Shown: one piece after another, positions 3,001 to 27,038 of the stretch
Layout of the letters: every line of letters starts with the position of its first letter
Numbering within the stretch: position 1 is the stretch's first letter
Origin: a virus
Lineage: Duplodnaviria > Caudoviricetes
Reading direction: 5' to 3' (one strand)
IMG/VR virus record: IMGVR_UViG_3300025282_000066
Span: 1-45,490 of that record
Length of the DNA stretch: 45,490 bases
Program-made: the position numbers and the translations under genes
Notes under the pieces: model-generated
Databases searched by the model: none
Seen by the model: the letters and a program-made list of their open reading frames with translations, nothing else
Told to the model about the DNA's origin: nothing

Positions 3001-6000
3001 TAGATTACAAGGTTGGCATAAAGTTGCTCGTCAAGATCTTTTAGAAGCTTTGGAAAACGATCTCATGGCTGGAGACGCTATAAACTATTTTGTAGCATTA
3101 GAGTTTATAACAAGAGTAGAGAAAGCCTTTAGACCTCTCTATAAAGAAGCTAAAGGAAGATATGGTTTCATAAGTCATCTTAAAGAAGATACAGGCGAAC
3201 CAGTATTTCTAACAAATAAACATGACGTACAAGCTTTTACAGAAATAGTAAGAAGAGCTATAAAATCTAGACTTGATAAATATATTGCATCTGAGAGTGG
3301 ACACAGAGATCTAAATAAATTAGAACCTATTCTGGGTATTTTGGGATACACAAGAGATAAAGATTTTGTTAGCTTAAGTATAGATCATGTTACTAGTATG
3401 ATTATAAAACATATGGGTAAACTAACTCCTGAGGGTGAACAGATCAAGTGGTCTATAGAAGCTTTTGGTAATGGTGAAATTGATTGGGCTCCGGCTGTAG
3501 AAATAGGAGCGGGCTTAGTAGACTTACTCACAGGATCGCCTCTCGCTGTTCAAAGAGGAATAGAAAGTAATGTTCTCCATAATGAAGATATTCGAACAGA
3601 AGAACAAGATCCCGGCGGGGAATCTATTCGGCTTCGTCAAACTCGACGGGGTGAGAGTAATAGATCTGCCCCGATATCTTTGTTTCACTTGGCTAGTGTA
3701 GTTAACCAGTATCGTTTTATGAAGAGAATTAACTATCTTTTACAGCATGATGAATTTACTCCAGAACAAAGAGAAGCTGTCGAAGCATGGATAGAAAAAG
3801 TTAATAGCGAAGGTACACCTAATCCTCTGGGCTTTAGGGCTGGTTTTAGAGTTAGTCCTCACTATATGGGAGGATTCTTAGATCAAGTAATACCTTCCAA
3901 AGAAACACTAACGGAATGGGGTTTGACGTTTTTATTAGATTTACCAAACTTAGCCCATAGTGTAATTCATGATCAAATCTCTGTTTCTCAAAATAATCCT
4001 TTGCGGTTCAGAGGAGATTTAAAAAACTTTTCAGAGGATTTCTCACATGGGGATGATATTATATTACCTTTCCATTGGTGGGGTGAAGTTTTATCTTATG
4101 AACAAATGTCTCCTACGCTTGAAGGATTAAGCGAAGGTTTACTAGACTATGAAGCTGCTCGTTATAGGGAGTGGCGTGAAGCCAACCCAGACTTAAGTAT
4201 TACTGATTTGTTCTCTGTACAAACACATGTTGACAGAACAGGTAGCGGTAGGTGGGAAATGAAAGCCCTGTCTTTGGCCGCCGATCCCGGAGCTATAGAT
4301 GCTTTAGTTAGTGAACTTAAAGATACACATGGTACAAAAACAATATCAAAAGAAATAAAAAGAGATGGCTTATTTAATACTATCTTAACGCACCGAGGGT
4401 TTACTGAGAAAGATCTTTCAGATCATTATTTAGGTTTAGCTTTAGAGGTAGCACAACTTATTACTTCTCATAGAAACCACGAAATTGTAAAAGCCTTAGG
4501 ACCTATGCTTACAGCTTTTGGACAACTCGATGGAATAACAACTGTAGAAGAATTAATAGAAAGAAGCGAAACAAACGATATCATTAAAACTTTACGGAAA
4601 GTTTTTAAAGTACCTGCAATGCGTTTTATATACGAAGGTACTATGAGAAACTTTAAAAAGGAGTTTATCCTAGCAAACAAAGGTAAGGCTAGAGAGGCTA
4701 TATTGGAATTAGGAGAGCTGTTAGGTTATGATTTCTATGGGAAAAACCACGAAGAACTAGAAGCCTTAGCGACAATACTTTATAAGGTTGGCGTTAATAA
4801 TATGTCTATAGCTTTACAAGAGGCTTCTTTAGGCACAAGAAAGAAACCAAGTCAAGTTTCAATTACCGAAAGAGGAACTGGAATAAGCCATGCTATGAGA
4901 ACTGCGGTAATGAAATACCTCTCTTTGAATAGATCCACCGATGCTAATATAACATTAATTCCAGAACTTGCTGAAGGTTGGAAGGCTGTTATTAAAGCTA
5001 AGTCTCTAGAAGATCCAAAGTCTGGTACGGGCGTTGAGGCTATTGTGGTTAATGAAGAAACTGGAGCAGAACACCGAGTTTCTTTAGATATTACAGAAAT
5101 TTCTGACAAGCCTCAAGAAGCTGACAAGAAGAATAGTCTTATCAAAGCCGACGAAGCCTTAAAACTTTTTGAAGCCGCTTTAAAGAAAGCAGCTATTTAT
5201 GACTTTGGAGAAGACGTTGATTTTGAAGAAGCTATGGAAAAAACTAGAGAAAGGTATACAAATTGGAGTAAGATTCAGGCTTATCTAAAAGAACGAAGGA
5301 ATCGATTCCTTACAATAGGAGAACTTAATGAACTTAAGGCCATGGCTTATCCCAGTACTCCCCAAACAGATATGGCTGTCTTTAGAGGTCTTAATATGTT
5401 AGGGGCCGCAACCTACCAAATAAATCTTGAAAGAGCACAGTTATTAGCTGATGCTATGGGGATTGCTGGTTTTGATGCCGAAATTCAGCTCGCTAGTATG
5501 ATGAATAAGAATATGTATTTCCCTGTGGGATATTCAACTATGTCTGATAGAGGTTATCCAGGTTTACAAATTATGTCTACTCTTACAGGTATAGCTTTAG
5601 AAAGAGCTGCTGTAAGACCTTTAAGAATTAGGGATAACACAACCGGAAAGATGGTTGCCTTCCCTTATAAGAGTTTTGAAGAATTTATAAAGGCTAAACA
5701 AGAAGCCTTTGAAGCTACAGGAGGAGTCTGGGATAAAGCTAAACTTAGAGAGACCTTTAAAGAATTCTTAAGAGATGTAGAGAATGCTGAGGAATCTCTT
5801 GGTTTATATGATACCGCAGATAATCCTTTCCATAAATTATCTAGAGAAGATGCAAAGAAGAAAGTAGAGGATCTAATAACCTTACAGCAATTTATCTGGT
5901 GGGCTAGTTATGAAGCTCCTCCAGCTTCTGTATTCCCTGATTATACTACTGAAGTTTCTGATGAAGCCTTATTACAAGAGCTCCAAGAAGATTGGACCAG

Positions 6001-9000
6001 TCACTCAGAAAGAATGTATAAAGAATTACCTAGAGAAATGGAGATAGAGGTTAACGATGCTAGTGATCAAGAATTAAAATTAAAAGGTAAGGCATCATTG
6101 ATACGTAGTAATGAAGCTAGTAAAAAGACAGGATACCCTATTCAACTATACCATAGAAGTGAGGTAGATGATAGTCGATATATAGACTCAAGTAATCCAA
6201 AGGGGTTTATGTCTACGCAACCTTTATATCAATCCTTACCTTTCCATGATAGAGGAATATTGGCTTTTCAGAGAAGAGCTTTACAGAATAAAGTAGACAG
6301 TCTGTTAGGACCAATTGCGGGTCTTCGAGAAGTTATAGCGCCAATTCCCGGCGTAGATAACTCTCTTGGGTGGGCTTCTCCTTGGAGCGAAAAAACACTA
6401 CCCGCTCGTAGAACAACACTAGCCGAGTATCTACAGCTTTATGGTAAAAATGAAGAGGGAATGTTAGCAGGAACTATAGCAAGAGATTTAGATACTTGGG
6501 CTAGTCGTAGAGGTTTATTAAATGAATTACACGATAAACCTGAATTCTATCCTTATTACTTCTTGATTAGAGAAATTGAAAAAACCTATCAAAGATTTGT
6601 AAAGTATGCTAGATCAGAAATGTCTGAGGAAGAGTTGATATTTAGAAGATCTGAGTGGTTAACTGCTCTCCATAAATTAGACGAGGTATCACGTAATATT
6701 GTTGAGTATGAACACTCTGGTCTAACTTTAGATGGTAAGGCTAGTCTGTTGGCTTTGGTCCGACCTATCCATGATAAAGCTACTTGGAAAGAGATTCTAA
6801 CAAGTACTGTTACCGAAGATCATGCAGAAGGTAAACTTCTTTCACCAACACTAATACACACAGAACTTAAAGCTCCTCTAATGCCAAGTGAAGGTACGCC
6901 TATATTTGAAACCGCGGAAGATAAAGCTTATTGGGATGAGCATATTGGTGAAGCTCATTGGAAAGATATAGTAAATGAATTAACTATAGGGTCTGGTATT
7001 ATCCAAGCCCATGATTTTAATCGTTTCTTAATGGTTCCACTTTACCAGTCCTATATTAGTGAAGTCTTAAAAACATACAAAAGACCCGATGGTACTAAGC
7101 CTTATGCAGATTCTTCTATCTATAAAGATCCTAGAAAGTGGGAAGAAGCGGTAGAAAGACAAGATAGAAAAGAAATTATTAGACGGGCAAAAAATATAGC
7201 GAGAGGCTCAAAAGGTGTGTCGATAATGTTAGATATCTCGGTTGTAGAGTATGCCGATGAAAATAATCCAGATGGTCCTAATCTTGTCAAGCTTATGGTT
7301 GAAAGTGCCGTTGGTCAAACTGTACAAAAAGGAAAAACTAAAACAGAAGTCTCTTTTAATAGTAGACACGCATCAGCTGAAGTAGGCTTTGGTTTCTTAA
7401 GTAGAAGTCCTAGAATATATAAACTTATTGGTGGCAGGTTTAAGATCCATTTAACTCCCGAAGGTGCTCTTAAGTTATTTGGAATTACAGATAATATAAG
7501 ACCTTTAGACGAGTTACAAAATGCTGCTATATCGAATAAAATCTTTGGGGTTAAGTTTGATCAAAACAATGAACCACTTAGGGCTAAGCCTTTACAAGAC
7601 ATAATTAGAGATGCTATTGGTTTTACTACTAGACATCAAATAGAAGAAGCAACTAGAATTAGCGATGCTTTAAACCTAATTGTTAGGCAATCACGGGCCG
7701 ATAAATCTCAAGGTCCTCGTATGATTTCTCATAAACAAGTTACGATAGATCAATTTGGATTAGACGTAGTAGATCTTCACGCTTATAAGACAGGAGAAAT
7801 AGCTCCTCCAGAAGGAAGAACACTTGCTTGGAGAGAAGCTGTTCTCTCACCAATTACAGAATTTCTTCATAGTATAGAAGAAGAAAATCTTTTTAATCCT
7901 TACTTCGATATTCATGCTGAGTTAACCTCTCTTATAAAAAGAGTAAGAGAAGATGTTGGCCCAAGTTATCAACATGCTTTAGGAATCTCTATTGCCCTAT
8001 CCTCCTTAATGATTAATGGGGCTTCAAGAATTCCTTCTGATAGTATGATTATACCCTTCCTTGATCCTCAAATCTACAACACTAGAAGGATAGCCGACAG
8101 CGGTAAAGTCGATATTGATCCCCTTATCAATGAAGCACAGGCCTTATATAGAAAGCTTGTTATTTTCCAAGACTCAGATTCCTTTATTAAGACTTTACCA
8201 GTTTATCACGCTGCGAGAACTTTTGCTTTTGAAATGAGTCTAGATCCCGCTGCTGATATTGAAACTAGTACCGAAGAGGTGTTTATAAACTGGCTTAAGG
8301 AAAAAGGATTATATGAGTTTGATTTAGGTCAGCCAGCGAAAAGCAGTTTCCTTGAATTTGAGGCTGGTCGAGATACTGAACCAAAAATCTATTATAGCTA
8401 TAATCAACATTTAGAAAATTATAAACCCGGCCTGTCTGATGAGGAAAAAAGAAGACAGCTTATCCTGTTGTCTTTAGATGCTGCTCTATCTCATCAAGAA
8501 ACTGCTAACAATCTAAGGGTAGAGTTTGATCAGACTAATCTTGATTCGGAAGAATCAGAGTTAGATACACTTAAGAGTGTATTCTTAGGTAATGTATCTA
8601 AAGACCATGATACGGCTCTGAAATTTGCAGAGACTAGAGATAATATAACTAGACCACATTTAAGAAGAGTATTGAAAAAAATACAGGGTATGGAAGAAAG
8701 AGGAATAGTTAAAGGAAAAGAAACACGATTACTGAGACAACTAATCTTAAACGCTTATGCTATGAATCCTTTGATAGTTAGAGATCTCATGTTTGATTTA
8801 GAAGCCCATTCTATTAAATCTGGTAAAACTGAAGAAGGACAATACTATATTAGATTTGGAGAACGGTTAAAGAGAATAGGAAAGGATCCTCTAGATATTG
8901 TACAAATCTTTGCTCATGAGGTTTCTCATATTGCTAGGGCTAAATTTATCTCAAGCAATTCAGGAGAGTGGGATGCTTTTCAGGCTCTCTTGAGAGGACG

Positions 9001-12000
9001 AGGAAAAGGTCTTGTAAAGAAATTAGTAATGGCATGGCATGGTAATAGATGGAATTCGTCTGCCCAAGAAGAGTATAACAACTATGTAACCAAAGGTCCC
9101 GAAGAATTTATAGCAGCATTGGGACAGTTCTTCTTATTAAAAGATATGTTACCCACAATTAAAAATATGACTACAGAAGAAGCTAAGACTCTCCAAACAG
9201 CTTTGGGGTTTGTGGGCAGGATTATGTCTTTTGTCCGGAATGTATTCTCAGATCTAGATCATGTGTGGTCTCGATTCTTTGTTAGTAATGATGAAGTGAA
9301 TATTTTAATGCATAGATTATTTGGACTAGATATAACAACACCAAACTATAGTCAAGTCTTAGATGTAGAAAATACTGGTCCCCTTACCTTTAATTGGATG
9401 AATAGATTTACTGATGATGATTGGCAACTATCTGAGGGACAACGAGGTACTATGGAAGAAATAGATGCTAGATTTGAAGATGCAGTTGATCATAGAAACA
9501 TATTAGAAATGATGCAAGAAAAAGGTACTATTACCGATGAACAGCTACGTAAGTTAAATAGTCTTCGTAATATGACAGACAGACGTTTAGAAAGCGGGAT
9601 TAGTATTTTTGAATTCTATGACCATCTTCCACATACTATGGCAAAGTTTGGTACCGATGTTAGTATGGGAGACCATACTTGGCAAGTATTAGACCTAGAA
9701 GCTGTATTAGATTCTTCTTTAGGAAACTCCACTGAAATACAACTAGATAGAATAGTTGCTTTCCAGTATGGTGTAAATCAAATGAGACATAAGTTTGGGA
9801 ACCAAATTCAAGATAATGCTGGTGAATTTGCTATGCGTATGAGTAAAGCTTTAGGTAAACTGGGAAGATTTATGGGACTCGGTAGAAATAGAACAGTAGA
9901 TGAAGACCCTATCAGAACCAGAGTACTTAGTGGTATCGCCGGGCATACTGGTAATGAGTATACTTGGGCAGCACCACATATTATTCCTATCTGGTTAACT
10001 ACGCTTATTGATGAGCATATTACTAATACCAGAGGACATTATGATACTCTAGAAGGACTTCCTTCTTTAAGAAAATCTTTAGAAGAAGTAGTCAATGTCG
10101 AAAATGTCTTATTTAGATTACACGGTGTATTACAAAATGAGCTCCTTAGTCCACTCGCTTCTTTTATAAAAGGAGATAACACACCCGGTAAAAAAACCAG
10201 AGAGATTCTCAAGGAAGTAAGTGCTGCTTTTACTTTATTAGTAGAAAACGAAACAGAGACAGATCTAGGATTTTCTGAAGAAACAAAAATTAGATTGGCT
10301 AATCTTAGCCCTAAAAAAAGAGAACTCTTCTATTCTACAATAAAAGAAATGGCACAGGTTATGCGAAGTCTTATGGAAAATATTCAAAAGTCTCGCCAAG
10401 ATTTAGGTGACTGGACAAGTGCAGCTGATTCTTTGATGGGTTACAAACTAAGTCAAGAGATTAAACAAGGGACTAATTCTTCTACTATGTTCGATGCTAT
10501 GAATGAAGAAATACATAACAGGCTATTAGATAATACCCATGACTTTGTAGATCCCTTAACTTTATTTGCCATGAATGCTTTACCCCGTTTCGATACAACA
10601 GAAAACTTAACAGAAGATCTTTTCGGTCCAAAAGGATTGTATGGAAATAAAACAGAACCCTCATCTTTATACGTTCTTTTGATTTCACAATTAGCTAAAA
10701 CTATGGATGAAACCTTTAGTTCTGAAGAAAAGGTATTAAACGCATCTCTTGATCCTGTAAAACAAACAAAGGTTGATGATTTTGTTAGAAAGTTTAAAAC
10801 CTTATTTGAGGATGGAGTTTTAAAAGAAAAGTATCTCTCAGGTTTTAGAATTACTATACAGAAACTAATGAGAGATATGGCTTCTGGAGAAATCACTTGG
10901 TCAAATCTTAATATAGCACATGTGGATAAACTAAAATTTCAATACCATCATTATTTAAAAGAATCTGGTGGTAAAGATGCTACTCATGATATGAGGGTTG
11001 ATAAGAGATTCCAATCGTTGTTCCTTAATAGAGATTCCTTGAGTTTCTTAGAACAGTCTAGAGGAGCTATAGCTTTTGAAATGCCACAGGGACGTATGCC
11101 TTTGTTAGAAGAAAGGTCTTTAACTACTGGGAAAATTTATAATGTAACCCAACTCCATACTCGAAACTTTATGAATCGTGCGTATATGGGACACTACTTA
11201 CCTAATGATGCTTGGTGGATTCCAAAAGTTAGTCAAGCTATTAGAAATCCTATAATTAGAGAAAACCTTACACTACATCCTGTTGAAACTATTAGAAGTC
11301 TAAAGAAGGGTTTGGCAGATACTACACATGAGAGAATGATCCTTCAATACCACTTAGGGATGCGTGGAGACATAGGCCACTTACTTGCTTTGTTTAAGTA
11401 CTTTAATCAGGTGGGAGATTTACATGATATGGCAGGAAATAAAGCTAGTGAGTCTGTTAGAAAAGCCATGACTAAAAGTGTAGAATTCTTAGAACAAAAA
11501 TATGCATTCTTAAGAGGCTTCCAAGAAGAAGGAACATCCTATGGTACTATGGCTGACTGGGCTTTTGAGATGGCTCCTTCAGTTACTAAGATAGCCTTTG
11601 CAGGTAACTTGGGTATTGCTTCTCTTACCGTAGAACATATGATGAATACTTTTGTAACTATGATAGGAGAAAAGAAATTATTAAATGGATTTAGAACAAT
11701 GTTTGCTCCTGTCTTTCATGGTTTATCCAGCGAAGAAACAAAATTAGTAGCAAGTGATATTGCTGATGCTGTAGAAGGAATGACACAAGGCTTCTTACCT
11801 GAGTATGAGCAAGCAGCAAGTGAAGCTGAAGCTGTATTTGGTCAGGATTTTACTAACAAGTGGGCTAGTCAAATGCTGAGATTTCCAAAACATGTTCTTA
11901 GGTCTTCCGCAACAGCTAGAATTATTACATTAAGAAAGGGTATCTACTCCCTTCTTCACAGTAATCCTGCTAAAATAAAAGTACTACTTGATCACATTGA

Positions 12001-13225: not shown

Positions 13226-13299
13226 ATCGACTAGGGGGTCACGAATTTACACGGGGCATAGGATAGGATAGCTTGTTTGCTATTCCCCCCGTACCCCCT

Positions 13300-13320
13300 T
13301 GTTGCTTAGCAACAGAAAGG
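13300..13320 (+). promoter_or_regulatory. Hairpin-plus-RBS element 1 (TGTTGC-TTA-GCAACA-GAAAGG)
   Basis: 6-bp inverted repeat with a 3-nt loop, directly fused to the Shine-Dalgarno of the ATG at 13330. One of four similar elements. Confidence 0.5.
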
Positions 13321-13329
13321 AGATCCGCA

Positions 13330-13524
13330 ATGGCGTATCTCAAGATGACACGAGATGAATACTCTCGTGTCCATGGTGTCTTTGCCGCAGCCGGTGGCAG
13401 GGATGTCAAGGGTGTGTCCGCTGAATTGGAGCGGGCCCACACGCATATCGTAACGCTGGGCGTGAGGCTAGACCTTACGCTCGTCGTTCAGCAGAAGCTT
13501 GCCCAAGAGGCAGGACTCCGCTGA
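13330..13524 (+). CDS. Hypothetical early protein (64 aa)
   Basis: GAAAGGAG RBS before ATG 13330, in frame with track ORF 13273..13524. Confidence 0.7.
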   Translation: MAYLKMTRDEYSRVHGVFAAAGGRDVKGVSAELERAHTHIVTLGVRLDLTLVVQQKLAQEAGLR

Positions 13525-13563
13525 AACCATGGGCTAAGCTACGGCCCTCAACGGTAGCATGAA

Positions 13564-13584
13564 GTCCCATTAGGGACAGAGAGG
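13564..13584 (+). promoter_or_regulatory. Hairpin-plus-RBS element 2 (GTCCC-ATTA-GGGAC-AGAGAGG)
   Basis: 5-bp stem followed by a purine-rich RBS before ATG 13592. Confidence 0.45.
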
Positions 13585-13591
13585 TTCTATT

Positions 13592-13954
13592 ATGAACACC
13601 ATGACCATAACCATTATGAGTCTGTGGGACGCATCAACACATGAGTATGATGTTATCACAGATGAGTGGGATCAGCATATTAAGCCAGAAGTTCTTCTGG
13701 AGAAAGTGTTCGTCCGACAACAGGATGACACTAAAGATGTGCCTAACATACCTTCGATGTGTGCAGGTGATATCGTTAGTGTTAGCACTATTCCGTATAG
13801 TGCGATGCTCGACGGTTTCATGGACAGAAAGAAAGTAGAAAGGAGTGCTCGGTTTCTTTGTACGGCAAACGGATGGAAGAGATTGACCCTTGAGCTCTTC
13901 TACCAGTGGACAACGTCTTCTTCGCTAGAACGAATGCTTCTAGCACGCAAATAG
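13592..13954 (+). CDS. Hypothetical early protein (120 aa)
   Basis: ORF with RBS. The PSMCAGDIV...FLCTANGW segment resembles small phage YodL-like proteins, but the resemblance is weak. Confidence 0.7.
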   Translation: MNTMTITIMSLWDASTHEYDVITDEWDQHIKPEVLLEKVFVRQQDDTKDVPNIPSMCAGDIVSVSTIPYSAMLDGFMDRKKVERSARFLCTANGWKRLTLELFYQWTTSSSLERMLLARK

Positions 13955-13985
13955 GCACAGCTGTCAGCCTTCAATGGCAGCACAT

Positions 13986-14010
13986 TGTCCCTCGTCGGGA
14001 CAGAAAGGGA
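13986..14010 (+). promoter_or_regulatory. Hairpin-plus-RBS element 3 (TGTCCC-TCGTC-GGGACA-GAAAGGGA)
   Basis: 6-bp stem followed by an RBS before ATG 14012/14018. Confidence 0.45.
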
Positions 14011-14017
14011 TATGATC

Positions 14018-15790
14018 ATGAAGATCAAGATTCCCAACAAGACCGTGGCATCCCTCAAGGAAACCACGGACGCAGCCACGGAGCTGTGCTTCGAGGCTCA
14101 CTCGGAGTACGTGGCTGATCTCTACAATCGTGGTAGAGAAGCAGATGAGTTCGTGACTCGTCTGAGGAAGGATGTCCTGTATACCACAGGGCTGACCTTT
14201 AGCGTGCCATTGGCACGTAAGACACACTCGTCCATCTTGGAGGCGTACCTCAAGTACAAGCCCAAGAAGGAGGGTGCATACCCGTTCTACACCTTGGAGC
14301 CAAGCGGCAAGTTGCCTATCGTGACTCGGAATCCGAGCATGGAGGTGGGGGCCGACTGGTCCCAATCCGTCAAGTACTTCGGTACGTGTGGGCATCTGGT
14401 CGATGGCCGGATGCTGGAAGCGGTGTCTATCCACCGCAATGCTCTGCTCCACAGTGGAGCAGATGATGCAACGGATGATGCCGAGAATTATCTGCCACTA
14501 CACGTGTTGCAGATTCTGGCTAAGATGTATGGAGAGGAACAGGAATGCTTCGTCTCCTACCACCAACTCCAAGAGTCAGGGCGGATGATAGAAGAGCTCA
14601 GGGGTGGGGGCTCTGCTAACAACAAGATCTCACGAGCGGTGCTCCTGGATACAAACTTCGTGGTTTGTGATAAGGAGAACCTTGAGATCCTTGAGAACTG
14701 TATCCGAGCCAAGTACGGTGTCTCAAGCAAGATCAAGGACTGGGCATCACGAGTCCTTAATAAATACGATGTGTCAGATCACCACAAGTGCGAGGAAATC
14801 AATCTCGCCTGCTGTTGGAGAGACATCATCACCAAGGGTGGGTCTCATCACACGGTTGAGATCGATGCCCATACCAGTGGCATGGTTCACATGCTCATGC
14901 AAGTGGGACTGTGGATTCGACGAGACATCTGTGCTCGTACTAAGGGATGGGAGAAGCTCTATACTCGCATCGCTAGGATGATCAGGATGTCCTGCCCATG
15001 GGCTGGGCATCTACCCATGAGTGAGATCATGGCAATCGCTAAGAAGGTGATGTCACCTTCCATGTACGGTGGTGGGTCCACTGCCATCGTACCGCAGTTC
15101 TTCAAGAATGTTAAGCATGGAGATGGAAACTGGGTCTTCCCATCTCGCAGCTTGGTAGTTCCCGACTACTACCAGCCATTGTTCAATGAGACCATAAAGG
15201 TCTATGACAAGGGTGTTGGTCATCATGTAGATATCCTGTCGGATACTCAAGATGGGCTCACATGCTTCGACAAGGAAGTCACAAAGAAGTACTCCCAGTA
15301 CTTCCGCAAGTGCTTCCCATTTGTGAAGGGTAGAGGTAAGGAAGATCCCGGACTGTTCGGAAAGTTCATCTCTCATGGTGAGGCCAATCCGAATGGATTG
15401 ATGAAGCTTGCGGGTATGCAGGTACAAATCCATCCGTTCACAGAAGACAAGCTTCGTAAGGTAGGCGTAACAGCCTACGATGCAGAAGGTTACAGGCACA
15501 GCACTGGTGTCTATCCTCTGGTCGAGAGCAGCTACACTGACCTCATGGCGAAGCATACTCACCTACTGGACAGCTACCAGATGGCCTTGTTCGGATGCAT
15601 GGCCGAAGAAGAGGGCGTGTGTGTACGTCCGATCCTCGATGCTGTCAAGGTTCCAGCCGGGAAACTCAAGTGGGCCTTAGAGGCAGCATCACAAACATTC
15701 CTGCATGTCCATGCCAAGCCTCGCTTCCCCGTAGGAACCGAAGGCTTCAAGGCATGGCAAGGCGAAGCCCCCAGCGTTTGGGGCTTCTGA
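14018..15790 (+). CDS. Compact, divergent T7-family single-subunit RNA polymerase-like protein
   Basis: Motif A VEIDAHTSG (Asp at 14864), motif B KKVMSPSMYGG (15041), AKHTHLLDS matching T7 PNFVHSQD (15551), motif C PILDAV (Asp at 15638), in T7 RNAP order and spacing. Start moved from TTG 13985 to the RBS-supported ATG at 14018 (14012 also possible). Confidence 0.7.
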   Translation: MKIKIPNKTVASLKETTDAATELCFEAHSEYVADLYNRGREADEFVTRLRKDVLYTTGLTFSVPLARKTHSSILEAYLKYKPKKEGAYPFYTLEPSGKLPIVTRNPSMEVGADWSQSVKYFGTCGHLVDGRMLEAVSIHRNALLHSGADDATDDAENYLPLHVLQILAKMYGEEQECFVSYHQLQESGRMIEELRGGGSANNKISRAVLLDTNFVVCDKENLEILENCIRAKYGVSSKIKDWASRVLNKYDVSDHHKCEEINLACCWRDIITKGGSHHTVEIDAHTSGMVHMLMQVGLWIRRDICARTKGWEKLYTRIARMIRMSCPWAGHLPMSEIMAIAKKVMSPSMYGGGSTAIVPQFFKNVKHGDGNWVFPSRSLVVPDYYQPLFNETIKVYDKGVGHHVDILSDTQDGLTCFDKEVTKKYSQYFRKCFPFVKGRGKEDPGLFGKFISHGEANPNGLMKLAGMQVQIHPFTEDKLRKVGVTAYDAEGYRHSTGVYPLVESSYTDLMAKHTHLLDSYQMALFGCMAEEEGVCVRPILDAVKVPAGKLKWALEAASQTFLHVHAKPRFPVGTEGFKAWQGEAPSVWGF

Positions 15791-15798
15791 TATACCTC

Positions 15799-15818
15799 GT
15801 CGCTTAGCGACAGAAAGG
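15799..15818 (+). promoter_or_regulatory. Hairpin-plus-RBS element 4 (GTCGC-TTA-GCGAC-AGAAAGG)
   Basis: 5-bp stem with a TTA loop, fused to the RBS before ATG 15827. Confidence 0.5.
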
Positions 15819-15826
15819 ATAGCACC

Positions 15827-16336
15827 ATGGCTATCAAGACCATCATCGTTCCTACTCGTTCTTCACAGAAGTACTCCAATGCGTTGGAGTGTCACGCTGC
15901 CAGTCACCCCACCATGGGTGAGGGCAGGCTGTACTTCTACCTGTCCAAGGACAAGAAGAGTCGGGTTGCCCGCTTCTTCCCCAAGGACTGGGAGAATGGA
16001 TGCTTGTATGTCCGAGCAACCGATGGCTTCCCTGTTGACAAGACAGTGAAAGAGATGGGTGAACACATGGGTCTTGACCATGTGTTGGGACAGATTAACA
16101 TCCCGTCCAACTTCAGGATCTCCAGTACCTGTAAGTTCTACCTCATGGACAGCCCTGAGTTTGAGGATAACACCCTCACGTTCAGCCTTAGGTGGAACAA
16201 GATGACTAAGCAATTCACATGTCCCTTCGAGATGGATCCCACATGGGATGAGGAAGTACTGGGTACTGAATGCTTCGAAGCTATTCAGAGATTTGTCTGG
16301 CAGCAATGGCACGGCTGTGGACTGTATGGTGGCTGA
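15827..16336 (+). CDS. Hypothetical protein (169 aa)
   Basis: ORF with GAAAGGA RBS and the same GC3-rich codon style as the neighbouring early genes. Confidence 0.8.
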   Translation: MAIKTIIVPTRSSQKYSNALECHAASHPTMGEGRLYFYLSKDKKSRVARFFPKDWENGCLYVRATDGFPVDKTVKEMGEHMGLDHVLGQINIPSNFRISSTCKFYLMDSPEFEDNTLTFSLRWNKMTKQFTCPFEMDPTWDEEVLGTECFEAIQRFVWQQWHGCGLYGG

Positions 16337-16386
16337 TGATTTGACCGGGGGGTTACTACCTTGGGCTACCGCCTGAGGTAGAAATT

Positions 16387-16418
16387 TTGACACCTCCTCC
16401 GGGGGGATTGATATAAAT
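16387..16418 (+). promoter_or_regulatory. Possible host sigma70-type promoter
   Basis: TTGACA at 16387 and TG-A-TATAAA at 16409-16417. The 19-nt spacer is non-optimal. Confidence 0.3.
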
Positions 16419-16600
16419 GACTATATACTTATATAGAGAACGGCATGTAGTTGCTAGTGTTACCTACTATATGTAGTGGGTCTATATAGTTGGAGTATAT
16501 AGTAGAACCTAGGGTATAACTATAGTTAGATAGGTGTTTATAATTATATAAGGATTACTCCTATGTTCTATAGAATACCTTAAGGAGTACGTGGTATCTT
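16411..16600. other. AT-rich non-coding tract with multiple short palindromes (possible origin or regulatory region)
   Basis: CTATAT-ACTT-ATATAG, CTATATAG, TAACTATAGTTA, TTCTATAGAA, CCTTAAGG; no credible ORF. Confidence 0.4.
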
Positions 16601-16704
16601 ATGAACTATGGCCCTAGGGGGCACGCTATGCCCCTACGGGCGGAGTGATTATCTTATTAGATAGTCCCATTACTAATAATGGTGATGGAATAGGAGACCT
16701 GACA

Positions 16705-16899
16705 ATGGCAAAGCTGGTCATTATCATGCCCCCAACGGGTGCAAAGAAGGCTCGGACCGAGGAAACTTGGGAGCGAGACCACCAACTCATGCTCGATGCT
16801 GTAGGAACGCAGCACGAGTGGGGCCGCACGGCGGTCAAACGGCTAGTAAACGATGCTGAGACCCTCGGTATCGTGGTGGAGGTGAAGACACAGACCTAG
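16705..16899 (+). CDS. Hypothetical protein (64 aa)
   Basis: AGGAG RBS before ATG 16705, in frame with track ORF 16645..16899, followed by a terminator. Confidence 0.7.
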   Translation: MAKLVIIMPPTGAKKARTEETWERDHQLMLDAVGTQHEWGRTAVKRLVNDAETLGIVVEVKTQT

Positions 16900-16924
16900 G
16901 TCTGCTGTTTTCCCGACCACTATC

Positions 16925-16963
16925 ACACCCTCGGTGTCCTTAGGGGCATCGAGGGTGTTTTTC
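16925..16963 (+). terminator. Rho-independent terminator
   Basis: ACACCCTCGGTGTCC-TTAG-GGGCATCGAGGGTGT stem (with G-U pairs) followed by a T run. Confidence 0.75.
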
Positions 16964-17388
16964 TGTTGACGATGGGGTATGTCCGATACAGCGTGGCTAC
17001 CCCCGTCCCTTAGTTACATCCGCCAAGGTGGGTGTACCTAAGGGGCGTAAGCCTGTCCTGAGCATGGAGTGTAAAAGTTGACTCCTTAAAGACCATTAAA
17101 CTGCTCATCTCTCGCACTTGCCTAAGCAAGCAACCAACTGCCAGTAACTGTAATGGTTATGTGGGATTCCTGTTGATTCAACAGCGGCCCATCAATACTT
17201 GAGGTGATAAGTTCATTTGAACCCACACTCAAGGACCGACAGACATCCGATGTCAGAGAGATATGCGGTATACAAATCACAAGCTCTGTGTCATTGCGGT
17301 TCAGGGAATCCGAGTTAACAAAATTCCCCCGAAGTTCCGGCTACTGGCGTAGCGTGGAGTAGCAGAGACATCTCTCTCACCAAAGAGT

Positions 17389-17476
17389 AGGATCTGTTGC
17401 CCTTGATGGGGTGGTGCCCATCTAAAGGTCAAAATATAAGACCCCACGAGAGGTTCGATTCCTCTCTGGTCCTCCA
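17389..17476 (+). ncRNA. tRNA-like structure (non-canonical)
   Basis: T-arm GAGAGG-TTCGATT-CCTCTC; AGGATC/GGTCCT acceptor-like pairing ending in CCA; internal GATGGG/CCCATC hairpin; no canonical 7-nt anticodon loop. Confidence 0.4.
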
Positions 17477-17581
17477 ATTCAGTAAATGCTACAACAAGCA
17501 TTGCCCTGCTCCTCTGGGTTATGCGAGGACATGGCCCTGTTATGATAGCAGGGAGAGCACATGAATCTACAGCTCATCTTC

Positions 17582-17663
17582 GGGGGTGACATGGAAAGTC
17601 TCCGCAGATATGGCCGCATGTCGGCACCTGCGGACTACGAGGGTTCGAATCCCTCCACCTCCA
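17582..17663 (+). ncRNA. Miniature tmRNA-like RNA (tRNA-like domain only)
   Basis: Acceptor GGGGGTG/CACCTCC-A with G3-U70; stemless D-loop ACATGGAAAGTC; TCCGCAG/CTGCGGA helix; T-arm GAGGG-TTCGAAT-CCCTC. Confidence 0.6.
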
Positions 17664-17685
17664 TTGTGCACTGTCGTGAACTGGC

Positions 17686-17783
17686 CCGACATTAAATAAC
17701 TTGACCACCCTGAGCTTACCGGCAGAGGGGACAAATATATTGAGTGGTTATACTGGAGATACGGGTTCGAGTCCCGTCGTTGG
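17686..17783 (+). ncRNA. tRNA-like structure or degenerate tRNA
   Basis: T-arm ACGGG-TTCGAGT-CCCGT (17761-17777); CCGAC/GTTGG closing pairing; TGACCAC/GTGGTTA helix. Confidence 0.3.
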
Positions 17784-18022
17784 ATAGGCGAGCCTCTAAT
17801 ATGAGGAATATAACTCGACTTATTCTAACCGTGATGTATACAGCGATGGGGTGCTCACCCCCTATAGCTCAATTGGCTAGAGCACCAGTATATCCTCTCA
17901 ATCCCTTCCATTGGATACATCCACCAACAATCGTAAGAAACTTCGATGGTGACATCAAAGCAGAAGTTGGGTGAGTCTTTATTAGACTCACGGGATGGAT
18001 CCAATAACTCAGGAGATCTAAC

Positions 18023-18151
18023 ATGACAAAAGATGAAAAAGCAGACATTGCTCTCTTGTTCAAGACACTGAATGATGCTATGATACGCATCGAGCTACTT
18101 GAAGAGGAATGGAGAAGTGTTCTATTAGGAATGCTGGAGGTAACAAAGTGA
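18023..18151 (+). CDS. Hypothetical protein (42 aa)
   Basis: AGGAG RBS; MTKDEKADIALLFKTLND... Below the track length cutoff. Confidence 0.6.
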   Translation: MTKDEKADIALLFKTLNDAMIRIELLEEEWRSVLLGMLEVTK

Positions 18152-18185
18152 TATTCTGAGGCTACATTTAAACAGGAGAACTAGC

Positions 18186-18900: not shown

Positions 18901-19045
18901 CCTAGATCTAATCCAATGTGAAGATTACTATGGTGAAGAGTTTCCAAATATTTGGGACTTAGCCTATGAACTCTTTTTTGACAACATGGAGATTCTAAAA
19001 AATGACAACAGGACCAAGGAAACTACAGGATCTAAAGAATCGTGA
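18893..19045 (+). CDS. Small acidic hypothetical protein (50 aa)
   Basis: MDDLDLIQCEDYYGEEFPNIWDLAYELFFD...; fills the gap between neighbouring genes. Confidence 0.45.
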   Translation: MDDLDLIQCEDYYGEEFPNIWDLAYELFFDNMEILKNDNRTKETTGSKES

Positions 19046-19253
19046 AGATGATTCCAAATCTCTTTGGAAACTCCCAAGCGGACAACACGTAATTGTATCT
19101 CGTATTCTTGCTTTCGATCACAAAGGCTGGGAAACTATGATCTTTAAATGTAACTCAACTGGAGAAGACTGGAAATCCAGTATATACGAAACCAGAAGAT
19201 TTGAAACTCATTCTCAATCAATCAATAATCTCATGAAGGATGTTTACGTATGA
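19002..19253 (+). CDS. Hypothetical protein
   Basis: GGAG RBS; contains a WETMIFKC segment. Confidence 0.75.
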   Translation: MTTGPRKLQDLKNREDDSKSLWKLPSGQHVIVSRILAFDHKGWETMIFKCNSTGEDWKSSIYETRRFETHSQSINNLMKDVYV

Positions 19254-19414
19254 ATGGTACTAATCAACGCGACCTTGGTCGTTGGCATGCTTCCAAAGAT
19301 CGTCAAGAAGATGCTCACTGGGATGATAAACCAGACAAATCAAAAGAAAGAGATGACTACTTTAAAGATGGAGACTATCTTCGAGACCTGAAATGGGATC
19401 AAGATCATTCTTAG
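19250..19414 (+). CDS. Hypothetical protein (54 aa)
   Basis: ATGA overlap with the upstream stop; AAGGA RBS. Confidence 0.55.
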   Translation: MNGTNQRDLGRWHASKDRQEDAHWDDKPDKSKERDDYFKDGDYLRDLKWDQDHS

Positions 19415-19422
19415 GGAATAAC

Positions 19423-19698
19423 ATGGACTATAAAATCGTAGAAATCTTTTGGACAGATGCAGAAACTATAGGAGATACTGGCTGGATGCCGTTGACAGAA
19501 GGCGTTCAATCTGCTAAAGTACCACCACCGTTAATGCGTACTGTCGGATATGTATTAGTAGATCACGAAGATTTTATTTCCATTACAGACAGTTTAGGAG
19601 ATCAAGAGTGTGGACACATAACCAAGATTCCTATTCACATGATTCAACGAAAGACTAATCTTTATGAAGAAGACACAATGGGGGATATGGATCGATGA
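19423..19698 (+). CDS. Conserved phage hypothetical protein
   Basis: VEIFWTDA...GW...TVGYV...IP pattern typical of a common small phage family. Start set to ATG 19423. Confidence 0.75.
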   Translation: MDYKIVEIFWTDAETIGDTGWMPLTEGVQSAKVPPPLMRTVGYVLVDHEDFISITDSLGDQECGHITKIPIHMIQRKTNLYEEDTMGDMDR

Positions 19699-19867
19699 TA
19701 TTGGCTGGCTTGAAGATAGCCACACAAAAGATCCTAAGACTGATACATATATCGCTAATCCATCACTATGGCCTACGCTTCGTGAAGCCACGAAAGAAGC
19801 TAAGGAACTTAACACCTTATGGAGAGGCCGTAAAGCATCTTATGAAGCAAAGGAATACAAACCATGA
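19664..19867 (+). CDS. Hypothetical protein
   Basis: ORF coupled to the next gene by an ATGA overlap. Confidence 0.6.
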   Translation: MKKTQWGIWIDDIGWLEDSHTKDPKTDTYIANPSLWPTLREATKEAKELNTLWRGRKASYEAKEYKP

Positions 19868-20145
19868 TATTAAGACAGACTGTAATAGACACAGGTCACC
19901 CAATCGCAAGCAAGATAGAACTAATTGAACATGAAGATACTATAGGCAACCTTTCCTATGAACTACTTCGCCAAGACGTTGATGTCTCCTTTGATTCAAC
20001 TCTTGCTGACTATATTCCTGCATACGATAAAGGTTTCTTCACTAGAAAAGGTCACCACATTCATTGGAGAGCAGAGTTAATTTCTGTACGCCGAACATTC
20101 AGTGGTTGGATAGCCACTTATGGTGTATGGGATCACGAACTCTGA
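19864..20145 (+). CDS. Hypothetical protein
   Basis: AAGGA RBS; ATGA overlap. Confidence 0.7.
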   Translation: MILRQTVIDTGHPIASKIELIEHEDTIGNLSYELLRQDVDVSFDSTLADYIPAYDKGFFTRKGHHIHWRAELISVRRTFSGWIATYGVWDHEL

Positions 20146-20150
20146 TTTAA

Positions 20151-20321
20151 ATGGGACGTACTCATCGTAAAGAAAAGAAAGAGGATCGTCCTAAAAAACG
20201 TAAGTCTTATACTTCCAGAGACAAGGCTAAAAGAACCTTGGATGATTGGGAGAACAAAGACTGGGAAAATCTGTCAACTGATATAGGAGAGCAAAATGGC
20301 TCACGAAATGACGGAAAATGA
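20151..20321 (+). CDS. Small basic hypothetical protein (56 aa)
   Basis: MGRTHRKEKKEDRPKKRK...; fills an intergenic gap. Confidence 0.5.
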   Translation: MGRTHRKEKKEDRPKKRKSYTSRDKAKRTLDDWENKDWENLSTDIGEQNGSRNDGK

Positions 20322-21264
20322 TTCTGCTGTATATTACAAAGAACGTGCTTGGCATGGTCTAGGTAATGTTATACCTGATTCCATGTCAATCATGGATGCA
20401 TACGACAAGTCCGGCCTCAGCTGGGAAGTCACTAAGGTTGGAGGAATTACCGTTGGTAATACTTGGACCGAAGATTACAATGGTATTGTAAGAGACGATA
20501 CCAAAGAAGTACTCGGAATCGTAAGTTCCAAGTACAAGGTAGTACAAAACCACGAGGTATTTGATCTGGCTCAATACTTTAGTTCTGTGGCTACCGTAGA
20601 ATCTGCTGGATCAGTACAAGGTGGACGAAAGAACTACCTGTTACTTCATTCAGATTCATTTGATGCTAACACCAACGACACAATAGAGAGGTACATGGCT
20701 CTGTTCTGGGGTCATGACGGAACCTCCAGTCTTATCATTAAACCTACCTCTATCCGAGTAGTATGTAAGAATACAATGGATATGGCTTTGGCTCAAAAGG
20801 CTACAAGTTTGGTTATCAAGCATCACGGTAATATAGAAGAAAAGATGGATACCGCTAGGACCATCGTTTCTCAATATCGTGAGACTGGTATTCTCTTCCA
20901 ACGTGAGGTTGAATACCTCGCAGGCAAGAACATCACTCACGAGGAACTAAGGAAATTCTTCTTCGAAGCATACTCCAGATTCTGGAATGAGTTCAATGTC
21001 GCTCCCATGAACAAGGAAGAGGACAAGTTATACGAAAGTGCTTGCCACACAATCCTTAACTGGGAGAACACATTCGAAGCTGAAACTGTAGACATTATTC
21101 CCAGCCCTTGGGTTGCAGTGAATGCAGTAACTAATTACATTCAGCACCGAGTTGCTAAGCATGGACGCCAAGCCTCTATAGATTCCAAGGCATTCAATAA
21201 CTTGAATGGTATAAATGCTAAGAAGACAAAGAACATCATGCAGATGGCATTGTCTCACTTCTGA
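20296..21264 (+). CDS. DUF932 / phage-plasmid TIGR03299-like protein
   Basis: AWHGLG; LGIVSSKYKVVQN; VESAGSVQGGR; GHDGTSS...TSIRVVCKNT; W.AVNAVT.Y..H. Confidence 0.85.
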   Translation: MAHEMTENDSAVYYKERAWHGLGNVIPDSMSIMDAYDKSGLSWEVTKVGGITVGNTWTEDYNGIVRDDTKEVLGIVSSKYKVVQNHEVFDLAQYFSSVATVESAGSVQGGRKNYLLLHSDSFDANTNDTIERYMALFWGHDGTSSLIIKPTSIRVVCKNTMDMALAQKATSLVIKHHGNIEEKMDTARTIVSQYRETGILFQREVEYLAGKNITHEELRKFFFEAYSRFWNEFNVAPMNKEEDKLYESACHTILNWENTFEAETVDIIPSPWVAVNAVTNYIQHRVAKHGRQASIDSKAFNNLNGINAKKTKNIMQMALSHF

Positions 21265-21271
21265 TCCCCAA

Positions 21272-21310
21272 GGTCTCACTTGTCTCCCCTTCGGGGGAGC
21301 AGGTGGACCA
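21272..21310 (+). promoter_or_regulatory. Long stem-loop with cUUCGg tetraloop (processing, stabilising or terminator element)
   Basis: CACTTG-T-CTCCCC-TTCG-GGGGAG-CAGGTG directly after the stop codon; no U tract. Confidence 0.5.
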
Positions 21311-21477
21311 CTATCACGGAGGTACCAATGCTAGCCCAACTACTATATCCCATGCGAATGAGAATTATATTATTCATACCCTTAGTAATGTATTGTTGAT
21401 GAACATCGTTATAGGCATACTTATAACTATTTCTTGTCTAAGCTTACTTAAAACGATTATGGAGTTAAGGAAACTAG

Positions 21478-21756
21478 ATGAAAAAAGACGTTGATCAAAA
21501 CTTTGGTGGATCTTTCAATGCCCACAAACATTGGAAAAAGTTACGTGAGAAGCATCGTAAAAAGGAAGCTCAAGAAGCAAGGGGTATATTTAGCCGAGCC
21601 CAACCAGAGACCTATCAACCCAACAACCAAACAATAGAAGGTTCTGAAAGAATAATATCAAAAGAATTGTATGATCTTAATTATGAGCTTGCTTTTGGTA
21701 GAATTACTAAAGAAGAATACGAACAAAGGAGATCAGAACTTGATTTGGGAGAGTGA
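21478..21756 (+). CDS. Hypothetical protein
   Basis: AAGGA RBS. The C-terminal GRITKEEYEQRR resembles a SHOCT-like helix. Confidence 0.7.
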   Translation: MKKDVDQNFGGSFNAHKHWKKLREKHRKKEAQEARGIFSRAQPETYQPNNQTIEGSERIISKELYDLNYELAFGRITKEEYEQRRSELDLGE

Positions 21757-24184
21757 AACTGAAGACGTTCAGTTAGACCGACGTAATGGTCAGATTATAT
21801 ACGAGCAGTCCATGCTGGAATATGGTCGGCACAAATACTGGAAGGACTACGAACGGGCTCCTGATGAAGGAATACCTGAGCAATGTCTTATTGATTCCTC
21901 TATCAAAGAACTAGAAAATAAATACCAAGAGTGGATTGATCGGGTATGTAGTGCTCCTAAAGTTCCTAGTTGGGTCTACCCCTTGATGGAATTAGGCTCA
22001 CGTAAGATGGCTGATATAACTATACGTGCTGTCATACGTCATTGGTTTTCTCCCTCCTATTGGAATGGAAGTTACAACGAACATATACACACACCTCCAG
22101 TAGCTCAAAAGATAGCGTGTCAGATTGCAAATGATGTATCTGATATTATTGCCTACCAACAAGCCAAAGAAGCAAACTACACCGACTGGAAGAGACAATC
22201 TAAGTTCATTAAGAACTGGACTCTAAAGAGATGCCGAGCATTCTCCAAGAAAATGCAAACCAATGTCAAATTAAGTACTAGGGCCAAGCATTCTTTCGGA
22301 CATCACATGCTAGAGATAGCCTGTAGTTCTAATATTATTGAGATGAGAAAAGAAAAGATAAAAACTAGATCAGGTAAGTTCCGTACTTGTAGTTTTGTTG
22401 AGTTCCATCCAGAGGTACTCAAAGAGTTACATAAGAGACACGATATTCTCCAGAATTCTACCTTAGTTTACAGACCAATGCTTATTCCTCCAATAGAACA
22501 TACTCTCCTTGCTTCTGGAGGATACATAACAAGAAATCTCAGAAAACCTGTAGTACAACGATATCAAAACAATTACTTTGGAGACATGCCTAAGCAGCAG
22601 AAGTTCTCAGAGCCATCAGAACTTGTTTTACGAGGCCTGAATGGCATGCAAAAAACTGAATGGACTGTGGATAAAAAGGTATATGAGGTAATGAAGAATC
22701 TGTTTGAGAACAATACTCAAATAGGTAATCTTCCGCCTTATGGGTTTGATGAGTTCATGTATTCCGAAGACTACCCAAAAGGTGGACCCAAAGAAGAACA
22801 AGCCAAATGGCTACAGATTCGAGAAGAATGTTGGGGTAATTGGTACAAATCTGAACAAGCCAGAGGACGTATGTTAGTACGGCTTGCTTTAGCCGAAGAC
22901 CTAATGAGATGGGATTACTTCTATCATGTATATACCTTAGACTTCCGGGGCCGGGCTTACACCACATGTGAATTACTATCACCACAATCCTCAGATTTTG
23001 ATCGTGGATTGATTAAGTTTGCCGTCAGAAAAAAGCTAGATAAATTTGGTATCTATTGGCGTAAAGTTAATATTGCCAACTTATTTGATCAAGACAAAGG
23101 CACCTTTGATGAACGTGTTCAATGGGTAGAAGATAATCATGATATGCTACTTAGAATTGCTCAAGATCCTTATGAGAATAAAGAATGGGTTGATGATAGA
23201 AAGAAAAAGAATAAATCTTTTCGTAGACTTCAAGCAATCTTTGATTATGCTTTAGAAGATAACTGCTCCGACATATCAGTTCAACTTGACGGAAAGTGTA
23301 ATGGGAATCAACATTGGAGCTCCATTATGAGAGATCCTGATATTGCAAAACTTACAAGTGTGTCACCCGATGACAGGCCACAAGATTTATATCAATTTGT
23401 AGCCGATGGGGTCACCAGTTATTGTAAGATGCATATTAATGAGAACCCTTGGTATGGACAGTTCCTAGACTATTGGAAAGATGGGATAAATAGGAACGTA
23501 ACTAAACGATCTACTATGTGTGAGGCCTATGGGCTTACGTTCTATGGCATCCAAAAATACATACGCTTAGAGGGTCATGTAGATTGGGTACCGCGTGAGT
23601 CCCGAGGAGGAGCCATAGTCGAACTTGCTAGGGCAACTCAAGCAGCTCTAAATACAACCTTAAGTAGTAGTAATTCCGGAAAAGAATATCTTAAAGAAAT
23701 ATCTAATGTTGCTTCTGATCTTAATCAACATCTATGTTGGACTACACCCTCTGGCTTCAAAGTAGTACACTACTATACTGAAATTCAGACTCGTAGGTCT
23801 ATAGCCAAGTTATTTAATAGCCGTGAACTACACTTCTTTGTGAAGACAGACATTCCAAATGCTAAAGCTGCAAAGCAAGCTATTTCACCTAATTATATTC
23901 ACTCACTCGATGCTGCCCATATGTTTCTCGTACTAGCTGCTTTGCTTTCACAAGGTATAACAGATTTTTGTATGGTACATGATTCCTATGGATGTCATGC
24001 TAATGATGTCCCTTTAATGGCTAAGATTACCAGAGAAGAATTTGCAGGCATGCATCGCAATAATCAACTACAGTTCTTTAAAGAAGATATAGAAAAATCT
24101 TTGGGGGTAAACCTCCCTGATGTTCCAGCACAGGGAAACTTTAATGTAGACTCTGTGCTGGACTCACAATATTTCTTTGCATAA
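21740..24184 (+). CDS. T7-type DNA-directed RNA polymerase (gp1-like)
   Basis: PMLIPP, DFRGRAY, motif A QLDGKCNGNQH, motif B RNVTKRSTMCEAYG, WTTPSGF, SPNYIHSLDAAH, motif C VHDSYG, C-terminal YFFA. Start uncertain: TTG 21740 follows AAGGAG, while the track gives 21671. Confidence 0.97.
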   Translation: MIWESETEDVQLDRRNGQIIYEQSMLEYGRHKYWKDYERAPDEGIPEQCLIDSSIKELENKYQEWIDRVCSAPKVPSWVYPLMELGSRKMADITIRAVIRHWFSPSYWNGSYNEHIHTPPVAQKIACQIANDVSDIIAYQQAKEANYTDWKRQSKFIKNWTLKRCRAFSKKMQTNVKLSTRAKHSFGHHMLEIACSSNIIEMRKEKIKTRSGKFRTCSFVEFHPEVLKELHKRHDILQNSTLVYRPMLIPPIEHTLLASGGYITRNLRKPVVQRYQNNYFGDMPKQQKFSEPSELVLRGLNGMQKTEWTVDKKVYEVMKNLFENNTQIGNLPPYGFDEFMYSEDYPKGGPKEEQAKWLQIREECWGNWYKSEQARGRMLVRLALAEDLMRWDYFYHVYTLDFRGRAYTTCELLSPQSSDFDRGLIKFAVRKKLDKFGIYWRKVNIANLFDQDKGTFDERVQWVEDNHDMLLRIAQDPYENKEWVDDRKKKNKSFRRLQAIFDYALEDNCSDISVQLDGKCNGNQHWSSIMRDPDIAKLTSVSPDDRPQDLYQFVADGVTSYCKMHINENPWYGQFLDYWKDGINRNVTKRSTMCEAYGLTFYGIQKYIRLEGHVDWVPRESRGGAIVELARATQAALNTTLSSSNSGKEYLKEISNVASDLNQHLCWTTPSGFKVVHYYTEIQTRRSIAKLFNSRELHFFVKTDIPNAKAAKQAISPNYIHSLDAAHMFLVLAALLSQGITDFCMVHDSYGCHANDVPLMAKITREEFAGMHRNNQLQFFKEDIEKSLGVNLPDVPAQGNFNVDSVLDSQYFFA

Positions 24185-26965: not shown

Positions 26966-26975
<10 letters not shown>
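26427..26975 (+). CDS. Truncated citrate synthase / citryl-CoA lyase-like protein
   Basis: ATLGGLHAP (cf. GPLHGG), VPGWGS...DP (cf. GFGH...DPR), FPNAACY (cf. PNVDFY), GRIEAW (cf. R..GW). Start 26427 or 26415. Confidence 0.65.

Positions 26976-27038
<63 letters not shown>

Follow-up and report, generated by a model that had tools for sequence, protein, structure and literature searches.

Two free-standing T7-family RNA polymerases and a likely third, rearranged one within a giant protein of a T7-type phage

How many RNA polymerases (RNAPs) of its own does a T7-type phage encode, and could one of them enter the cell together with the DNA? This question is raised by the virus record IMGVR_UViG_3300025282_000066 (Duplodnaviria; Caudoviricetes), whose 45,490 nucleotides are here called the window, a linear IMG/VR record that is 68% complete; contigs encoding the same proteins reach up to 67 kb. 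From the letters of this DNA, an original prediction had placed three single-subunit, T7-family RNAPs between positions 3600 and 24184 and arranged them in a three-stage cascade. All ten motifs on which it was based lie where it placed them, on the plus strand and in frame 2, in three open reading frames (ORFs): one for a giant protein, one for a compact RNAP and one for a canonical RNAP. Two of the three enzymes are established, and the third, in the giant protein, is likely, judging from sequence conservation. On balance we slightly favour a phage with two free-standing RNAPs and a likely injected giant in which a likely third resides; this one is predicted to be active despite its rearranged motifs and would start a three-step cascade. 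Searches of Pfam, PHROGs and, with single sequences, the PDB detect the canonical candidate alone, and none of 50,697 cultured-phage records matches the compact RNAP or the giant.

The compact protein of 592 aa (14012-15790, plus strand; alternative start at 13985) carries the motifs IDAHTSG (14861), KKVMSPSMYG (15041), HTHLLD (15554) and ILDA (15632) on the plus strand, with Arg191, Asp285, Lys344, Tyr352, His517/Asp520 and Asp543 as key residues. It has no Pfam match. Yet a profile of 14 sequences aligns with canonical RNAPs in hhalign at 97.7% (E 1.5e-12), colinearly over 412 columns from the pre-thumb helix to past motif C, and matches structures of the mitochondrial RNAP (POLRMT) at E 4e-5. 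An AlphaFold2 model built from 12 sequences reaches a pLDDT of 80.5 and a pTM of 0.83; the 41 Foldseek matches listed for it are all POLRMT, yeast mitochondrial RNAP or T7 RNAP (best E 1.5e-10), with a TMq of about 0.5 to POLRMT and T7 RNAP. The model adopts the right-hand palm and fingers fold of the T7 family, as had been predicted for this early protein. The protein has a short N-terminal domain and no thumb helix bundle; in the alignment, the greater part of the thumb and a large share of the N-terminal domain are deleted. DxxGR and motifs A, B and C follow each other in canonical order with both Asp present.

Comparison with relatives covers 24 such second RNAPs, namely 10 of the 14 rows of alignment A7, near-duplicates having been dropped, and 14 new sequences. 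The Asp of motifs A and C and the Tyr of motif B are kept in all 24; 23 of them have the motif B Lys and 20 the motif C His. The expectation that the motifs are conserved is thereby borne out for both catalytic Asp. The second RNAPs grade into near-canonical forms. In a FastTree phylogeny of 62 proteins, 21 of the 24 make up a separate, long-branched group and three lie nearer the canonical RNAPs, so that the second RNAPs do not form one supported clade, while the canonical RNAPs of the window and its relatives form a clade of their own with a support of 1.0. Because of this separation the second RNAPs are not recent duplicates of the gp1-type gene, with the caveat that long-branch attraction may have shaped the tree. 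The two free-standing enzymes contain 14 and 15 Cys; with 14, the compact RNAP is unlikely to be injected. The compact protein belongs to the T7-family single-subunit RNAPs and is very probably a working enzyme.

The other free-standing enzyme is encoded at 21671-24184 on the plus strand (814-837 aa; PF00940, E 5.9e-77; phrog_414, E 2.2e-160), with DFRGR (22940), DGKCNG (23288), RNVTKRSTMCEAYG (23492) and VHDS (23975) on the same strand. This 837-aa ORF is an ordinary T7-type RNAP, whose best match in a cultured phage has 27.7% identity. In one relative (L044, of G006) a stretch of unknown bases splits the canonical RNAP, which probably reflects a gap in the assembly.

The third candidate resides in the giant, whose ORF (95-13225, plus strand) is cut by the left end of the window and encodes the C-terminal 4376 aa of a protein that measures 5825 aa in near-identical records. 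Its RNAP-like module with rearranged motif order spans aa 1190-2385 (3662..7249, plus strand) and was aligned with homologues from viral and metagenome contigs, 16 of which were used after two near-duplicates of alignment A6 had been dropped. Among the 1196 residues of the 17 sequences (17-94% identity) ten columns are invariant, R1211, D1293, G1319, D1380, Y1445, K1505, Y1513, R1819, G2037 and G2054, and six of these are residues of polymerase motifs. Since motif residues coincide with invariant columns in the giant as well as in the compact family, the motifs first quoted are more than chance resemblances.

The motifs that the original prediction had named in the giant, VDRTGSG (4229) and RKVFKVPAMRFIYEG (4595) on the plus strand, correspond to motifs A and B. 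Motif A (4229..4249, plus strand) contains Asp1380, kept in all 16 homologues; it is the best match of T7 residues 531-579 (P 0.28) and in distant homologues reads YFDKSFNGKHH, compared with AFDGSCSGIQH in T7. Motif B (4595..4642, plus strand; P 0.005) contains Lys1505 and Tyr1513, each in 16/16, and Arg1501, in 15/16, and is the best match to N4 mini-vRNAP 581-689 (P 0.015). That set held no motif C and needs correction here: upstream of motif A, a helix followed by a motif C-like hairpin (VIHDQ; 3857..3976, plus strand) presents Asp1293, again kept in 16/16, in the context IHDS, IHDA, IHDQ, IYDQ or VQDS and 87-138 residues ahead of motif A. In segment searches it is the site that T7 805-825 matches best (P 0.024), and the search in reverse gives P 0.007. 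We take Asp1293 and Asp1380 to be metal ligands and likewise assume the role of the motif C His. Downstream of motif B by 242-324 residues lies a stretch with a pre-thumb helix and a DxxGR hairpin but with the thumb deleted (5360..5608, plus strand; Asn1767, Arg1819, the Arg in 16/16), which matches T7 310-442, the pre-thumb helix and DWRGR hairpin, at P 3.2e-5. Further on, a QxxD motif (7004..7015, plus strand; Q 13/16, D 14/16; P 0.11) resembles HSQD of T7 (781-787), and no conserved motif C follows it.

All 16 aligned homologues share the order C-A-B-DxxGR, and a hold-out homologue outside the alignment (L238) also runs C-A-B. In T7 and N4 alike, DxxGR comes first, followed by A, B and C; the order in the giant therefore appears to be rearranged, and in a way that simple circular permutation does not produce. 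With motif C upstream of A, the module is colinear with neither N4 virion RNAP (vRNAP) nor T7 RNAP. When canonical test segments were searched over the whole module, six of eight fell in register on the motif sites and two did not, while four control segments gave P-values of 0.15-0.9 and reversed-alignment controls 0.14-0.83. In a block-order test the observed order scored 49.6 versus 28.2 for the canonical one, and placing A and B before DxxGR alone scored 49.5. The only part that aligns with N4 mini-vRNAP runs from DxY to motif B (probability 2.9%, P 0.015); colinear homology was not found, and a search with a hidden Markov model (HMM) was negative. The conservation of the catalytic residues, including the motif A Asp and the motif B Lys and Tyr in every homologue, thus agrees with what had been expected of a polymerase, the motifs themselves being assigned by pattern and weak profile matches. 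The module is likely a third single-subunit RNAP; it is probably active and, with a little less confidence, truly rearranged.

The giant is also placed like a virion RNAP. It contains no Cys among its 5825 residues, and neither do four upstream proteins of 244, 335, 191 and 1325 aa, which overlapping records of the same phage add together with tail genes and a terminase-like gene; these labels come from reading the translations. Among the 22 giant frames, 15 are free of Cys and none has more than 3. The giant seems to be the final gene of an ejection-type run, in the slot of T7 gp16 or N4 gp50, and is likely placed as a packaged virion RNAP would be. An HExxH metallopeptidase-type motif (8915..8929, plus strand) lies C-terminal to the module, as in N4 vRNAP, and an ART-PolyVal ADP-ribosyltransferase (ART) domain occupies 1925..2635 on the plus strand (PF18760, E 8.7e-12), a second copy lying just upstream of the window (E 7.3e-11). 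Among giant homologues the ART domain is present in some only, and accessory domains are exchanged, with RNase_H_2 (PF13482) in one and a weak Exo5-like match in another (P0010, P0011; L014, L015).

Between the giant and the canonical RNAP gene lies a GC-rich island (13300..18000) that may be a long terminal repeat; its GC content is about 0.50, that of its surroundings 0.38-0.41, and the equivalent region has 49-52% GC in the 8 records measured. Four elements on the plus strand within 13299..15820 (at about 13300, 13564, 13986 and 15799) consist of a hairpin with a stem of 5-6 bp that runs into ACAGA[AG]AGG, one ahead of each of the first four island genes. The 9-mer occurs four times in the window, always in the island, and the stems vary in sequence while their pairing is kept. 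A hairpin in such a position precedes 4/4 island genes versus 2/29 other genes, at a background of 5-10%. In run X1, from which the window may stem, the contig depth is 55 over 13883-18094 and 29 and 27 on the flanks; the step is similar but noisier in X8 and X11, and X6 is uninformative. This step hints at a terminal repeat of about 4 kb, a reading confounded because contig depth does not measure copy number and the depth step coincides with the GC step.

An AT-rich patch of short CTATAG-like palindromes (16400-16640) is followed by a 15-bp terminator-like hairpin (16925-16958); in G002 and G005 a comparable patch comes after the island. A cluster of tRNA-like remnants spans 17000-17920, none of them called by ARAGORN; it includes an Rfam tmRNA match at 17582-17666, which with E 3.2e-13 stays short of the gathering score, and, at 17733-17916, a weak YrlA match. 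In L003, a further record of this phage, the 166 nt from 17333 to 17498 are absent, 17332 being joined to 17499, and two other contigs end exactly at the borders of this segment. The sequence AGTTGGAGYATA, present on the plus strand in 3 copies (16488, 31520, 34968), is a candidate promoter of a phage RNAP.

The search of related contigs that the original prediction had suggested covered 10 records with a completeness of 90% or more; in 8 of them (G006, G007, G016, G017, G019, G021, G024 and G025) the trio of module, second RNAP and canonical RNAP is present. These records were found with RNAP queries and include some close kin, and the negatives number two. In those two, G029 and G030, HMM searches detect neither module nor second RNAP, though a cysteine-poor giant is present. 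Their giants (L249/L250 in G029, L254 in G030) have HExxH, almost no Cys and no detectable RNAP module, and provide natural controls for the one-RNAP state.

We infer a scheme, from the fold and activity of the giant's module and its packaging to the assignment of promoters and the order of stages, in which the giant would be ejected into the cell with the DNA. In its module, Asp1293 of motif C and Asp1380 of motif A would come together in one active site, to which motif B and the DxxGR hairpin, lying downstream, would contribute. The module would recognise the short hairpins before the island genes, so that the compact RNAP is made. The latter would transcribe the next block, including the gene for the gp1-type RNAP, and that RNAP, as in T7, would serve the genes for replication and for the virion. 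We give this complete cascade an even chance. Only tentatively, and with more doubt than belief, would we extend it to a worldwide marine group that injects an active RNAP of reversed motif order, the first member of the T7/mitochondrial RNAP family with a natural rearrangement, uses hairpin promoters in a terminal repeat of about 4 kb to produce a thumb-less second RNAP that turns on the gp1-type enzyme, and relies on three phage RNAPs and no host RNAP.

Several observations weigh against this scheme. The segment P-values are mostly weak taken singly, and the motif sites were picked by eye from the same alignments that were used for the segment tests. A Pfam RNA_pol match is found in 0/17 members of the module family, PDB sequence searches with the module give no relevant match, whole-module hhalign probabilities are 0.3-3%, and the best match against alignment A9 falls off the motifs. 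In the block-order test the motif C block adds nothing over 49.5, and the compact RNAP, run as a control, showed no preference for the canonical order. The window's compact RNAP has Leu at the motif C His position. The hairpins abut or overlap the ribosome-binding site and lack the GNA loop of N4, and, as read from the sequences, a clear hairpin stands ahead of only about 11 of 20 second-RNAP genes.

Given the missing GNA loop and the overlap with the ribosome-binding site, a role of the hairpins in RNA is equally plausible. Three RNAPs might be active but wired differently, with the hairpins as elements of RNA processing or translation and the compact RNAP as an accessory enzyme and not the middle step. 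The fact that the second RNAPs are neither one supported clade nor recent gp1-type copies fits such wiring, as does the GC bias that confounds the terminal repeat; the module and the second RNAP are nevertheless co-present or co-absent in all ten near-complete records, if with two negatives, and we hold this arrangement to be unlikely. Unlikely, too, is a phage with two working RNAPs only, in which the module is an RNAP-derived, DNA-binding or DNA-pulling part of the ejection machinery and host RNAP transcribes the island. The module is known from its sequence and scores weakly in profiles, its scrambled order could reflect decay, and two of ten near-complete relatives dispense with it. But this reading sits badly with both putative metal-binding Asp, the motif B Lys and Tyr and the DxxGR Arg being kept in 16/16 down to 17% identity, where little else is, and sigma-70-like sites in 12.9-25.5 kb number 23 versus 25.5 expected by chance.

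The rearrangement itself may be only apparent: the giant's RNAP could be active with its order unscrambled, being made up of two or three RNAP copies in tandem that have partly decayed, or with motif C elsewhere and the upstream IHD a look-alike. For the helix that precedes motif C there are two candidates (aa 1255-1283 and the QxxD at 2304-2307), which would suit this, and the DxxGR-to-QxxD spacing of 462-565 aa is near the roughly 506 of N4 vRNAP, as a second module would give. Against it, no invariant Asp follows QxxD, aa 1930-2300 hold no second conserved motif A or B, and the upstream site reads IHD, IYD or IQD followed by S, Q, A, M or C in 16/16, with IHDS in two; we judge it about as unlikely. 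A further reading, very improbable, takes the module not for an RNAP but for an enzyme of the family-A DNA polymerase or primase-like kind that protects or copies incoming DNA. RNase_H_2 occurs in some homologous giants, and motifs A, B, C and DxxGR are common to the Pol A superfamily; against this reading, the RNAP pre-thumb/DxRGR region gives the strongest segment match (P 3.2e-5), Glu never follows the motif C Asp whereas the phage's own DNA polymerase has VHDE, and the phage encodes a separate DNA polymerase and primase.

From 21.7 kb onward the window carries a T7-type replication and head module; the T7-type chassis that had been proposed is confirmed by PHROG matches to portal, scaffold, capsid, primase/helicase, DNA polymerase and a gp2.5-like single-stranded DNA-binding protein (SSB). 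Three tRNA genes lie at 26966-27190 (Arg(tct), Leu(taa), Met(cat)), and 39689-42831, inserted between the portal and scaffold genes, encodes a Thr-rich, internally repetitive protein of 648 aa and a virion protein of 328 aa. Two ORFs without PHROG matches (30367-31020 and 26415-26975) presumably resemble a sulfotransferase-type fold and a C-terminal fragment of citrate synthase, respectively. The gp2.5-like SSB is short (25539-26048; phrog_112, E 3.4e-7); the marine Autographiviridae group AG-10.1 is reported, in the accessible part of PMC12361551, to be without SSB.

If the giant's module is active, the T7/POLRMT fold tolerates reordered catalytic blocks, which would bear on the origin of the split RNAPII and the virion RNAP of N4, and the rearrangement would explain the missing Pfam match. 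The AG-10.1 giants, left unexplained in a 2025 survey, would gain a function, and a phage with three RNAPs of its own would bypass host transcription control altogether. As the compact RNAP is smaller than N4 RNAPII (592 versus 673 aa, the latter from the available text of PMC4496689), it offers a ready test of a minimal single-subunit RNAP and possibly an orthogonal expression tool.

Among known systems, T7 shares with the window phage a canonical RNAP followed by replication genes, portal, scaffold and capsid, and a cysteine-free run that ends in the largest protein; unlike the window phage it has one RNAP, uses host RNAP first, and its gp16 of about 1300 aa holds no polymerase module. N4 (Schitoviridae) transcribes with vRNAP gp50, then RNAPII (gp15 and gp16) and then host RNAP. 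According to the accessible parts of the sources, Schitoviridae ejection proteins show cysteine suppression, N4 vRNAP has 0 Cys and is equated with T7 gp16 (PMC11445570), and N4-like RNAP modules are fused to an HExxH peptidase and sometimes ART, an arrangement said to be confined to N4-like phages (PMC5512222). The giant, cysteine-free, the last ejection gene and with a central module followed by a C-terminal HExxH, has this layout (PMC5512222, PMC11445570), and the presence of RNAP, HExxH and ART makes its architecture match the N4-type polyvalent proteins (PMC5512222). N4 likewise has hairpins in early DNA, its promoters being hairpins that combine a 3-base loop with four spacer bases, and a minimal second RNAP with a short thumb and N-terminal domain, as far as the available text of PMC4496689 goes. 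Unlike N4, the window phage has a T7-type head, replication and gene order with all genes on one strand, a single-chain second RNAP and, in the position taken by host RNAP in N4, a likely third RNAP of its own; the N4 order DxxGR-A-B-C contrasts with C-A-B-DxxGR, and the window phage shows no GNA loop and no sequence match beyond motif B.

The closest counterpart is AG-10.1, like the window phage marine, uncultured, of about 67 kb and with T7-type core genes, in which a giant precedes an extra RNAP of about 600-700 aa and then the typical RNAP. The accessible part of PMC12361551 describes an extra RNAP of about 650 aa in 23 members, downstream of a protein of 3274-5566 aa, and PF00940 in four giant proteins whose function is called 'unclear'. 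The window phage, of AG-10.1 type, has the same T7-type core genes, large genome and giant upstream of the RNAP genes; a contig with homologues of all three proteins (that of L025) is listed as AG-10.1 in the supplement, and the canonical RNAP has 49% identity to that of a listed member. The view that the architecture was unlike any described phage hence holds in part: a layout with two RNAPs has been published and a third enzyme is foreshadowed there, although the paper, in its accessible part, counts two RNAP genes and proposes no virion RNAP, cascade, motif rearrangement, cysteine loss or hairpins. What the present analysis adds to that part of PMC12361551 is the scrambled virion-type module as a general feature and the GC-rich island with a hairpin before each gene.

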